From Fidelibacterota bacterium (lineage in GTDB: Bacteria; Fidelibacterota; Marinisomatia; Marinisomatales; TCS56), in NCBI GenBank assembly GCA_043822705.1, contig JBDRBK010000058.1:1-10570 (forward strand): DNA of 10,570 nucleotides, given 5' to 3'. Each line of letters opens with the position of its first letter. The first letter of the stretch is position 1. Position numbers and translations under genes: made by a program. Under the pieces are notes generated by a model. The model was not told the origin of the DNA. It searched no databases and saw nothing but the letters and a program-made list of their open reading frames with translations. Below, piece after piece: positions 4,531-10,570 of the stretch.

Positions 4531-4614
4531 GCCGGGGTGGCGGAACTGGTAGACGCGCTGGTCTCAAAAACCAGTGGGAGCAATCCCGTGCCGGTTCGAT
4601 TCCGGCCCTCGGTA
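4531..4614 (+). tRNA. tRNA-Leu (anticodon CAA)
   Basis: Sequence GCCGGGGTGGCGGAACTGGTAGACGCGCTGGTCTCAAAAACCAGTGGGAGCAATCCCGTGCCGGTTCGATTCCGGCCCTCGGTA. Anticodon arm is CTGGT-CT-CAA-AA-ACCAG, the long variable arm is GGGA-GCAA-TCCC, and the T arm is GCCGG-TTCGATT-CCGGC. CCA is not encoded. Confidence 0.97.
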
Positions 4615-4634
4615 CTGCGGCAATTCCGACGAGC

Positions 4635-4663
4635 AAAGGGTCTCACCAGAGGCCCTTTTTGTT
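4635..4663 (+). terminator. Rho-independent terminator after tRNA-Leu
   Basis: AAAGGGTCTC-ACCA-GAGGCCCTTT followed by TTGTT. Confidence 0.85.
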
Positions 4664-4934
4664 AGCTTCCGTATAATCAGATAACACCTGCTCATATTAG
4701 TTTTTATCAAAGTAAAGATGCAGTATTATCAGAATATTCGATCAAGGACGCTAAGGTCGTTGTCTATAACCTGCAACATTTCTAGGCAGTCACCTGTTCG
4801 ACCTAGATATGTGCATCGAGGACTCCAAGGTCATTCTTGTGCACACCAGCTCAATGACAACAGGTCATTATACCGAAGTACAATTGGGCACGATTCGACA
4901 CTGTATCAACAAACAATGATAAACAAAATTTAGG

Positions 4935-4980
4935 TTGTAATATGTAGTCAGGTAATATATTTTCAAATACAACAGGGAGG
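4935..4980 (+). promoter_or_regulatory. Putative promoter and RBS of the islet operon
   Basis: TTGTAA (4935-4940), 17-nt spacer, TATTTT (4958-4963). An SD GGGAGG lies at 4975-4980, ahead of the ATG at 4986. Confidence 0.5.
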
Positions 4981-4985
4981 GATTA

Positions 4986-5252
4986 ATGGCTAAGGATACC
5001 AGTACAGAAATAAAGTCTCAGAAAATAGAAATTGAGGTAATAATACCTGACGAATTACCTGTTATTTATTCAAATTATGCAGGTTTTTTTGCATCTAATA
5101 CTGACTGTCTCATCGATTTTGGTCTGCGAGATAATCTGGGAAAGGCAAAAATAATGACAAGAGTAATAATGAGCCCTGAGCAGACAAGAGTATTTGCAGA
5201 AAAATTGAACGGATTATTGGATGCTATAAACAAAAAGAATGAACAGCAGTAG
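4986..5252 (+). CDS. DUF3467-like small protein
   Basis: The pattern 'IYSNYA....S.TD.LIDFG ... AKIMTRVIMSPEQTRVFAEKL' resembles the DUF3467 consensus (YSN...S..EF.LDF...RV.MSP..AK.L). The gene has a strong SD. Confidence 0.75.
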   Translation: MAKDTSTEIKSQKIEIEVIIPDELPVIYSNYAGFFASNTDCLIDFGLRDNLGKAKIMTRVIMSPEQTRVFAEKLNGLLDAINKKNEQQ

Positions 5253-5270
5253 TATTCGTTTTCTGTTATA

Positions 5271-5600
5271 ATGTCCCAGCGTAAGCCTAATTATCTTTTT
5301 ACAGCAATCGATCCAGAAAATCGTGCCATTCATATGGCAGATCATACAGCTGATCATATTATAGCTGAACATGGATCAGCATCTCTTGACATTCCAAAAA
5401 TTAAAGAAACAATCGAGTCTCCAGATTGTATAAAAGAGAGTGAGTTGAACCCGGAATCACTGATCTATGTTCCAACCACTGAAACAAATAAGGACTTTAA
5501 CGTCACTACATTAATTGGTCCAGAATTTGCAGATGGAATTGTGACTTCGTCATACATTTCGAGTAGAGCGCTTAAAGGGAAAATAGTGTGGAAAAAATGA
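5271..5600 (+). CDS. Putative RNase toxin with a RelE/BECR-like fold (PBECR2/DUF4258-like partner of DUF2283)
   Basis: The pattern 'DP.NR.I.M....ADHII.EH ... IKETIESPD.I ... LIY ... GIVTSSY ... KGKIVW' resembles the HI...H / Pd.i / vvTAy / G..iW layout of small BECR-fold nucleases found upstream of DUF2283 genes. Its stop overlaps the next start (ATGA). Confidence 0.65.
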   Translation: MSQRKPNYLFTAIDPENRAIHMADHTADHIIAEHGSASLDIPKIKETIESPDCIKESELNPESLIYVPTTETNKDFNVTTLIGPEFADGIVTSSYISSRALKGKIVWKK

Positions 5601-5857
5601 AACCTACTAGAATAGCATACGATGATTTTGCTGATGTTTTATACATCACGTTCGGAAAAGCTAAATCAAGTATTGTAGATCCAATCACTGATAGCGATCT
5701 GATTAGAGTTAATACTACAACACATGAAGTTGTTGGCATTACGCTCATAGCTTATAAGAGAAGATATAAAAGCGATCCTCCAAAAAGCTACACATCTGAT
5801 ATTCGCCAAATTGTAGATAATCTATTGGCTGAACATAGAGTATTATTCGCAAATTAG
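5597..5857 (+). CDS. DUF2283-domain protein (predicted antitoxin)
   Basis: 'IAYDDFADVLYITFG ... LIRVN..THEVVGITL' matches the DUF2283 pattern (YD.EAD.LYI.F ... G.VVGI.I). The ATG at 5597 overlaps the upstream TGA (5598-5600), so I prefer it to the GTG at 5588. Confidence 0.85.
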   Translation: MKPTRIAYDDFADVLYITFGKAKSSIVDPITDSDLIRVNTTTHEVVGITLIAYKRRYKSDPPKSYTSDIRQIVDNLLAEHRVLFAN

Positions 5858-5910
5858 CTGTACCATAATCGTACAATATCAATCCATCACCACATATTAC
5901 TTGACTTCCA

Positions 5911-5967
5911 TTAGTCTTAAAAACCAGTCCTCTTCGAAATGTGCAGGTTCGATTCAAGCTCGTGTTA
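5911..5967 (+). pseudogene. Degenerate 3' portion of a tRNA-Leu (anticodon TAA); att-like relic
   Basis: Aligns without gaps to tRNA-Leu at an offset of 1353. TAGTCTTAAAAACCAGT vs TGGTCTCAAAAACCAGT gives 15/17. A 12-nt variable region follows with no identity. GTGCAGGTTCGATTCAAGCTCGTGTTA vs GTGCCGGTTCGATTCCGGCCCTCGGTA gives 20/27. The stems are broken and no D arm or 5' acceptor strand is present. Confidence 0.75.
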
Positions 5968-6011
5968 TTAAAAGCCGGCTCACTCCGATACAGCTTTTTC
6001 AGCATAATCGT

Positions 6012-6039
6012 AAATAAAAAGGGCCGCTGCCGCGGCCCT
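6012..6039 (-). terminator. Rho-independent terminator of the minus-strand gene ending at 6063
   Basis: Minus strand AGGGCCGC-GGCA-GCGGCCCT followed by TTTTATTT. Confidence 0.85.
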
Positions 6040-9585: not shown

Positions 9586-10518
9586 TTAATCCAACCTGAT
9601 ACCGCGGTAATGTTGCAGACGGGGTGCGCCCTGTCCGAGCCGCACCGTGATGACATCCAGCCGCAGGTTTTTGGCCGAATTGTTTTCCATCAGGTAATAT
9701 TCGATGGCATGCTGGATTCGGTTCAGTTTGGTACGATCGACTTTCTGTTCGGGAGTGCCCAATTGCTCTCTGGTTATGGTTTTTACTTCGACAAAAACGA
9801 TTTCCGTGGCCGTCTCGGCGATGATATCCAGCTCGCCGTGGTTACCGCAGATTATGTTGGTTGCGGTAATCGACAGACCCTGTTTCAGCAGTTCCAGACA
9901 GGCCAGCCTTTCCCCCCACCAGCCGATCCGGCGCTGTTTCCTCAACCAGCCGATTGTCGGCAGATAATCCGGTACCGGCCGGAAGCTGCGGCGATGAATC
10001 GGTGTGGCCAGGTATTCTTTCAATGCCGTTAGATGCTGCGGTGTTCCATAACCTTTGTGTTGAGCGAAACCATATTCCGGGAAAATCCGGTCCAGCTCCA
10101 GCATGTGGCGGTCGCGGCTGACTTTGGCGACAATCGAGGCGGCCTTGATACAATCGACTTTGGCGTCACCACCGATGATTCCCTGGTTGGGGATAATCTG
10201 GGTCGGCAGACCATAGCCGTCGACCAGTGCCCAGTCCGGCCGGATTGCCAGTCGCCCCAGCGCCATCTGCATCGCTTTGTAGGTCGCCTGCAGGATGTTC
10301 AGACGGTCGATCTCCGATTCGCCGACCCAGCCGATGCCGATCGCTCTAGCCTGCCGCTGGATTTCCTCAAATACTTTTTCGCGGTTGCGGGCGGTCATCT
10401 TCTTGGAATCCGCCAGACCGATGATACCGTGATCGTCCGGCAGAATCACCGCCGCCGCGCAGACCGGTCCGGCCAGTGGGCCTCGTCCGGCTTCGTCAAC
10501 ACCGGCGATTATTTCCAT
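9586..10518 (-). CDS. rnhB: Ribonuclease HII fused to a C-terminal YraN (UPF0102) domain
   Basis: RNase HII motifs 'AGVDEAGRGPLAGPV', 'DSKK', 'LVDG', 'GDAK...IKAASIVAKVSRD', 'HKGYGT..H' and 'HRRSF'. These continue in frame into the YraN motifs 'G.WGE..A', 'GELDII', 'IVFVEVK' and 'R.DVI.V'. The start is uncertain: I chose the ATG at 10518, but the frame is open to the window edge. Confidence 0.92.
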   Translation of the reverse strand: MEIIAGVDEAGRGPLAGPVCAAAVILPDDHGIIGLADSKKMTARNREKVFEEIQRQARAIGIGWVGESEIDRLNILQATYKAMQMALGRLAIRPDWALVDGYGLPTQIIPNQGIIGGDAKVDCIKAASIVAKVSRDRHMLELDRIFPEYGFAQHKGYGTPQHLTALKEYLATPIHRRSFRPVPDYLPTIGWLRKQRRIGWWGERLACLELLKQGLSITATNIICGNHGELDIIAETATEIVFVEVKTITREQLGTPEQKVDRTKLNRIQHAIEYYLMENNSAKNLRLDVITVRLGQGAPRLQHYRGIRLD

Positions 10519-10570
10519 GCCAGCTCGCGGATTTTCCGGCCATCGCTGCCCAACCACAGGGCGCCGGAAT

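Follow-up and report, generated by a model that had tools for sequence, protein, structure and literature searches.

The window, i.e. the whole stretch of DNA analysed here (10,570 nucleotides), represents an entire contig (C58) of a 3.34-Mb genome with 52.7% GC. It harbors a cassette of less than 1 kb with three small genes, which is located downstream of a tRNA gene. The following features are relevant:

4531..4615, + strand: tRNA-Leu(CAA), anchor of the variable site, outside the insert (ARAGORN)
4637..4663, + strand: hairpin and T-run after the tRNA, probably the native tRNA terminator (seen in the sequence, absent from the terminator scan)
4684..6011, no strand: low-GC insert carrying the cassette, 1,328 bp, with a short imperfect ATAATC repeat at its flanks
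4975..4980, + strand: Shine-Dalgarno motif GGGAGG of gene 1, 5 nt before the ATG
4986..5252, + strand: gene 1, DUF3467 protein of a mobile subfamily, 88 aa (Pfam, structural model)
5271..5600, + strand: gene 2, predicted RNase toxin with PBECR2/3-like BECR fold, 109 aa; His29, His34, Ser93
5588..5857 from GTG (89 aa) or 5597..5857 from ATG (86 aa), + strand: gene 3, DUF2283-like predicted antitoxin
5914..5955, + strand: degenerate remnant (3' half) of a tRNA-Leu(CAA)-like gene within the insert, at its right end; probable att-site scar

The organization of the cassette is as described in the original prediction: the three open reading frames are co-oriented, 18 nt separate genes 1 and 2, genes 2 and 3 overlap by ATGA at 5597-5600, and gene 1 is preceded by a Shine-Dalgarno motif. 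According to the alignment, the start of gene 3 that matches its homologues is the GTG at 5588. Similar features are found at the related cassettes reported below, since the small coupled genes 2 and 3 overlap in 16/16 loci with room downstream and Shine-Dalgarno-like motifs are present in 13 of the 14 upstream regions tested. The putative promoter of the trio could not be confirmed, because a consensus scan revealed none on the + strand upstream of gene 1 of the window and the best candidate was not better than shuffled sequences (p 0.365). Promoters above chance (shuffle p≤0.05) were detected in five of the 14 upstream regions, namely L093, L072, L064 and the near-copies L067/L068; a common palindrome or operator above chance was not found in these 14 regions. 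The trio had been described as the only convincing coding content of the islet; the only other + strand ORF (4718-4933, 71 aa) showed no family match in four libraries.

The insert differs markedly in base composition from its surroundings (36.4% GC vs. 52.7% in the rest of the window), and an empty site exists: in one contig of run X2 (depth 6), which is approximately 94% identical on both flanks, position 4683 directly abuts 6012. A similar post-tRNA hairpin is present in the same-family genome G227, in which 52 nt lie between the tRNA and the following core gene, i.e. the site is empty as well. The flanking core gene was found in seven of eight same-family genomes, with an empty site in one (G227), unrelated genes in four and another context in two cases; none of the eight genomes contains the cassette nuclease. 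Given the low GC and the patchy occurrence, we infer that the cassette was gained rather than lost at this site. The previous view of a tRNA-anchored islet remains valid regarding a discrete low-GC insert with an empty relative, but the insert is situated downstream of the hairpin of the tRNA and outside the tRNA gene. Classical integration inside the tRNA can be rejected, as the junction of the empty site is located 68 nt beyond the tRNA, past the hairpin. The scar at the right end aligned locally to tRNA-Leu(CAA) with a score of 32, whereas 300 shuffles reached 27 at most, and the alignments of four other tRNA-Leu genes to it were not above their own shuffles. As the insert begins past the tRNA hairpin, this scar probably arrived with the insert and stems from an earlier element that targeted a tRNA. 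In four same-family genomes (L139-L142), this position beside a 179-aa core gene is occupied by a different low-GC gene set each time, which characterizes it as an insertion hot spot. Furthermore, the hairpins at 4637-4663 and 6013-6039, which flank the insert, are 78% reverse-complementary and stand face-to-face at the empty site.

The family labels initially given to the three genes could be corroborated: the DUF3467 match of gene 1 is above the Pfam cut-off, and the PBECR and DUF2283 matches of genes 2 and 3 are below it and are supported by homologues. Gene 2 matched PBECR3 with 15.9 and PBECR2 with 15.6 bits (cut-offs 30 and 27.1, respectively). A full HMMER scan with gene 2 resulted in 32 proteins at E≤0.001, 31 of which were used for alignment A2 after one 66-aa fragment had been left out; 23 of these 31 relatives showed a PBECR2 match (E≤0.01). 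A word-index protein search matched only genes 1 and 2 of the window itself. The structural model of gene 2 (pLDDT 88.5) gave its best match with the CdiA-CT toxin 7m5f (Z 7.6, which is under Z 8; rmsd 3.6, 91 aligned residues) and also matched BrnT (3u97, Z 6.7), colicin D (Z 5.6), other CdiA toxins and RelE. The best 10 VIA structural matches were all BECR-type toxins, Foldseek returned no match for this model at E 0.001, and searches with profiles of all three genes found no sequence relatives in the PDB. Hence, the earlier assignment as BECR/RelE-like can be maintained with regard to the BECR fold, but the model places gene 2 nearer to the colicin/CdiA/BrnT side of BECR than to RelE. The active site of PBECR proteins consists of a His within the N-terminal helix along with a C-terminal Ser/Thr (Iyer et al., 2017, PMC5512222). 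In the model of gene 2, H29 is found in helix 24-34 and S93 in strand 89-97. Both His residues of the HIIAEH motif emphasized in the original prediction, H29 and H34, are invariant in 15/15 cassette members, which all have Ser or Thr at position 93. As modelled, gene 2 is a colicin/CdiA-like BECR protein with an intact PBECR His plus Ser/Thr site. Since the characterized colicin-like BECRs mostly cut tRNA (bioRxiv 10.64898/2026.08.28.747851), our guess is that gene 2 could be a tRNase. The window copy is atypical, because its gene 2 is acidic, compared to 12/15 basic homologues, and deviates from two motifs of the family, and its gene 1 is devoid of the C-terminal tail of the family. This copy may be weakened, though all frames are open.

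The same trio was also found in unrelated bacteria. Among 401 genomes of the host phylum, presumably Marinisomatota, 10 were matched by the A2 profile, and the two closest, which belong to another family, possess the same three genes. A DNA pattern of the gene-2 motif yielded 26 genome and 50 metagenome loci, and a BECR ORF was present in 51 of these 76. All 72 BECR ORF matches in L006-L094 were then ranked by the A2 score alone, which displayed a gap between 68 and 96 bits. Every one of the 18 gene-2 ORFs with at least 95 bits (16 distinct, window included) has DUF3467 directly upstream, at a spacing of -23 to +18 nt. A DUF2283-like gene is located downstream of 16 of the 18, and the remaining two are situated at contig ends. 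Below the gap there are 54 BECR ORFs (45 distinct, some of them fragments of one broken gene). DUF3467 was found upstream of 0/39 of the lower-scoring BECR ORFs with at least 300 nt of upstream sequence and at 0/11 further low-scoring loci from the Desulfobacterota phylum. Among the distant BECR relatives with room downstream, 30 of 38 are followed by a DUF2283-like gene and are without DUF3467. The original prediction of a dedicated third component was to be abandoned if gene 1 homologues never accompanied the gene 2/3 pair; the association was found in 16/16 distinct closest relatives vs. 0/50 distant ones. In a tree of the 16 cassette gene-2 proteins and 17 chosen two-gene relatives, the 16 occupy one side of a branch with 96/96 support. 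Because they form one clade, the association reflects one origin and not 16 independent events.

All three genes are under purifying selection (dN/dS <1 in seven pairs); the values range from 0.06 to 0.78 in the closest pair and stay below 0.3 in the other six pairs, with one value saturated and the pairs not independent. The between-gene distances are correlated with rho 0.54-0.69 (n 14), or 0.29-0.62 without four near-copies. In the pruned set, gene 1 tracks the other two genes weakly (rho 0.29 and 0.33, compared to 0.62 for genes 2/3). Moreover, gene 1 of the window groups with L065 (97/94) and gene 2 with L007/L008 (100/99), and this discordance is a hint that first genes may have been swapped between cassettes. 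The neighbors, which often belong to mobile elements, differ at every locus and include a phage integrase, a prohead protease, ArdC, a transposase and an AEP primase (23 proteins scanned), and no defence-island neighbors were identified around the cassettes. PADLOC 2.0 families were matched by neither the window trio nor three other trios. The nuclease had no match in viral contigs or in phage and plasmid records, although the latter query missed the Anoxybacillus copy described below, and gene 1 was likewise not matched in viral contigs. Neither the G401 phylum (401 genomes, best score 62 bits) nor the G402 phylum (301 genomes) yielded the cassette-type nuclease. Taken together, the three genes form a fixed unit which is mobile and under selection and whose BECR site is intact.

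Another copy of the trio became apparent from the DUF3467 side. A plasmid search with the DUF3467 protein of locus L148 (see below), in which the nuclease played no part in the selection, found two records, and the better one, the plasmid NZ_CP015439.1 of Anoxybacillus amylolyticus, encodes DUF3467, a PBECR2-like protein and DUF2283 in this order (L153:2489-3370). This trio is flanked by a CI/LexA-type repressor on one side and a recombinase on the other, with an adjacent antirepressor, i.e. it lies in a prophage. The slot between repressor and integrase is a known location of prophage defence genes. The Anoxybacillus nuclease matches PBECR2 with E 1.2e-4, scores 64.6 bits on A2 and is unresolved relative to the 16-member clade. 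As it falls into a score band otherwise without DUF3467 and is not placed in the clade, the score gap cannot be taken as a sharp limit, and the trio extends beyond the loci captured by the DNA pattern. A second query also gave two records, and the one inspected is a core copy beside rpsL.

These findings bear on a reading without any toxin, according to which the trio would be an accessory operon for RNA processing or of a prophage, or else a selfish cassette that gene 1 has long accompanied as a passenger, with a window copy that is possibly decaying. The lack of PADLOC matches and the motif losses specific to the window copy are consistent with it, and one origin plus co-inheritance is sufficient for the co-occurrence inside the clade. 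However, gene 1 is under purifying selection, the order of the trio is kept across 26-46% protein identity and also in the Bacillota prophage, the nuclease of which is not resolved within the clade, and the fold neighbors of gene 2 are almost all toxins, so that we regard this explanation as improbable.

Gene 3 of the window matches DUF2283 (PF10049) with 18.4 bits (E 0.0024), which is under the cut-off of 23. Since 13 of 14 cassette gene-3 homologues match DUF2283 at E≤0.01 and the Anoxybacillus gene 3 reaches 40.9 bits, it can be regarded as DUF2283-like. No DNA-binding or HTH family was matched in Pfam by gene 3 of the window or its homologues, and a comparison of genes 1 and 3 indicated no relationship. 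The tail past the DUF core comprises 32-48 aa. A cassette-specific ChAD tail was considered and rejected: the two-gene relatives have tails of similar length, hence no ChAD-like addition is evident. Some care is needed with the family name, as the domain of the ICE activator FseA presumably is a differently numbered DUF. The label DUF2283 is applied to FseA in PMC4755241. Several two-gene relatives (L010, L013-L015, L133) have stops within or beside the nuclease match and an intact DUF2283-like gene, which fits the expectation if toxins decay first.

Genes 2 and 3 are likely toxin and antitoxin, respectively. One may ask if gene 1 is instead the antitoxin or a co-antitoxin, with roles split as in HipBST and gene 3 being accessory or both being needed. 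Gene 1 is present in every clade member, and at most loci its overlap with gene 2 (-1 or -4) couples the translation of the two. But 30/38 distant BECR relatives keep the DUF2283-like gene in the absence of DUF3467, and the distances of gene 2 are followed more closely by those of gene 3 than by those of gene 1, hence there is little probability that gene 1 neutralizes the nuclease.

Gene 1 matches DUF3467 (PF11950) with 31.2 bits (cut-off 25), and this family was matched by 15/15 cassette gene-1 homologues, which matched no other Pfam family. In Marinisomatota, DUF3467 is near-universal and almost always single-copy (342/401 genomes). The genome of the window carries its own core DUF3467 on contig C128 with 98 bits. 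None of 27 core DUF3467 loci has a BECR or DUF2283 neighbor. In the tree, core and cassette copies are split with 100/99 support, and the cassette copies as one clade are unsupported. The possibility that gene 1 is a copy of the core DUF3467 of its host was ruled out, because it is distinct from the C128 copy in the tree. Judged from sequence comparison, gene 1 represents a mobile paralogue of this near-universal gene, which is otherwise single-copy. The core DUF3467 gene (L001:5901-6622, G000:C128; L100-L126) follows, in most of the inspected Marinisomatota loci, a conserved small acidic protein with two CxxC motifs, which has no Pfam match. In family f2, DUF3467 is absent from 37/37 genomes.

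The model of gene 1 (pLDDT 83.9) consists of three strands and a long helix. Its best fold matches are COMM domains, Pur-alpha from Borrelia and PC4 with middling Z scores of 5.0-6.2, and Foldseek gave no match at E≤0.001. SecB was not among the fold matches listed. All three of these folds form dimers. PC4 and Pur-alpha are single-stranded nucleic acid binders, and PC4-like homodimers bind ssDNA or RNA (PMC7549692), whereas COMM domains and COMMD-like proteins seem to be without a DNA/RNA-binding surface (PMC13392464). Hence, the fold is compatible with an adaptor as well as with a regulator. The same toxin-antitoxin core could therefore be combined with a gene 1 product that regulates the operon or senses single-stranded nucleic acid of phages as a PC4-like, ssDNA/RNA-binding dimer. 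PC4 and Borrelia Pur-alpha (Z 5.0-6.0) represent the top Foldseek rows for gene 1, gene 1 comes first in the operon, and gene 3 has no DNA-binding family match; moreover, three-component systems with a separate regulator exist, in which omega or PaaR serve antitoxins without a DNA-binding domain (PMC3920263). However, COMM domains score as high as PC4 and Pur-alpha against the model, which has three strands compared to four strands plus helix in the PC4 repeats (PMC7549692), and the net charge of gene 1 is near neutral (-3 to +5 across homologues). The near-neutral charge, the lack of a shared operator in the 14 upstream regions and the HTH protein that is paired with DUF3467 at L148 make us lean to the adaptor and regard the regulator as the main rival, albeit a rather unlikely one.

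Locus L148 was found when 401 genomes of another phylum were searched with the cassette profile of gene 1, which gave five matches at E≤1e-17; four of them group with core copies, and the fifth is L148. Here (L148:398-1806, G588:C10), a 158-aa toxin-like gene is followed by an HTH_3 protein, the tail of which is long and polar, and then by DUF3467, which has a long, unstable branch in the tree. The first gene had no match in Pfam, PADLOC or PDB and is, from its general appearance, presumably RelE/HigB-like. The locus is single, and its first gene was absent from 70 other genomes searched. As the antitoxin-like protein of L148 has its own DNA-binding domain, DUF3467 would be dispensable there as a repressor, in the position of SecB in the toxin-antitoxin-chaperone (TAC) systems. 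By its gene order, L148 thus resembles the TAC systems, DUF3467 taking the place of SecB.

The TAC systems (HigBA-SecB/HigC, MqsRA-SecB) are the obvious known systems for comparison. Like the cassette, they consist of three genes with a BECR-fold RNase before the antitoxin, include a small third protein with relatives in a housekeeping family and occur in prophages. In contrast, the third protein of the cassette is encoded by the first gene and belongs to DUF3467, with fold matches of the PC4/COMM type, the toxin is PBECR/colicin-like and not HigB or MqsR, and the antitoxin is DUF2283 without HTH and without a cassette-specific ChAD-like tail. Hence, the HTH plus ChAD extension of TAC antitoxins is lacking in gene 3, compared to the HTH_3 and long polar tail at L148. 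The likeness to SecB put forward in the original prediction can be kept as an analogy of roles only, since PC4, Pur-alpha and COMM domains are the folds that gene 1 matches best. Omega-epsilon-zeta, PaaR-PaaA-ParE and HipBST share with the cassette an extra first gene and an antitoxin without a DNA-binding domain (PMC3920263, PMC7180214), but in the cassette the toxin precedes the antitoxin, the toxin and antitoxin families are others, and gene 1 is not HTH/RHH by Pfam. The phage-type RNases PBECR2/PBECR3, CdiA-CT and colicin D/E5 correspond to gene 2 in the fold and in the N-helix His plus C-terminal Ser/Thr (PMC5512222), whereas gene 2 is a stand-alone cytoplasmic operon gene and does not form part of any polyvalent or exported protein, and in the window it stays below the Pfam cut-offs of the PBECR families. 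Genes 2 and 3, including their order and overlap, recur in the BECR-DUF2283 pairs (30/38 distant relatives), which differ by being without DUF3467 (0/39, plus 0/11); a literature search found no paper testing these pairs. Many Actinomycetota-type genomes (L023-L044, L046, L075, L086) contain high-GC pairs of BECR and DUF2283-like genes, sometimes in tandem, or a lone duplicate DUF2283-like gene. No description of the trio was found in the full-text literature, from which subscription papers are mostly missing, and the supplements or neighbourhood pages of the BECR preprint might list it. DUF3467 is scarcely mentioned in the full texts searched, and queries for PF11950 and for PC4-like proteins combined with toxins gave no matches. 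The cassette is a real, recurring and apparently undescribed three-gene module, predicted to function as a three-component variant of toxin-antitoxin systems, which is not a TAC by its antitoxin.

Among the possible readings, we tentatively prefer, at somewhat less than an even chance, a mobile, toxin-first type II toxin-antitoxin operon with a DUF3467 adaptor or chaperone that stabilizes the antitoxin and whose titration by phage or stress frees the RNase. As the recurrence data show, one branch of the BECR-DUF2283 pairs has taken up a DUF3467 paralogue as fixed first gene. According to the model, gene 2 would act as a metal-independent BECR endoribonuclease, most likely a translation blocker that cuts tRNA, as judged from its modelled fold and conserved site. 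The DUF2283 protein, translationally coupled to gene 2, would neutralize it by binding, as the near-universal pairing suggests. Folding or stability of the antitoxin would be maintained by the gene 1 product, a small, probably dimeric adaptor or chaperone. If a phage protein or stress titrated this product away, the RNase would be set free and growth arrest or abortive infection would result, i.e. the logic of TAC with a different third protein. We are rather confident that gene 1 is a dedicated part of the system. Arguments for its action on proteins and not on nucleic acid are evenly balanced, and an anti-phage role of the whole system falls just short of even probability. A further-reaching idea, which we regard as speculative and rather unlikely, is that DUF3467, a core gene of Marinisomatota and other phyla, acts like SecB, without being SecB, as a small chaperone or adaptor and that its mobile paralogues were recruited repeatedly as sensors of anti-phage toxin-antitoxin systems (BECR-DUF2283 and the L148 toxin-HTH pair), which would constitute a second, convergent TAC-like class.

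The cassette provides a testable role for two unstudied families, DUF2283 as antitoxin and DUF3467 as a near-universal gene of the host phylum. In TAC, phage sensing has been found in the third components (PMC11980606), and a third component with a different fold would represent a new sensing or control module. Since A. amylolyticus DSM 15939, the source of one copy, is a named strain available in culture and the cassette is so small, such tests would be cheap. As an additional observation in the window, the single open frame at 9586-10569 on the - strand seemingly joins the N-terminal and C-terminal parts of two proteins, which we take to be RNase HII-like and YraN-like, respectively, from their motifs.
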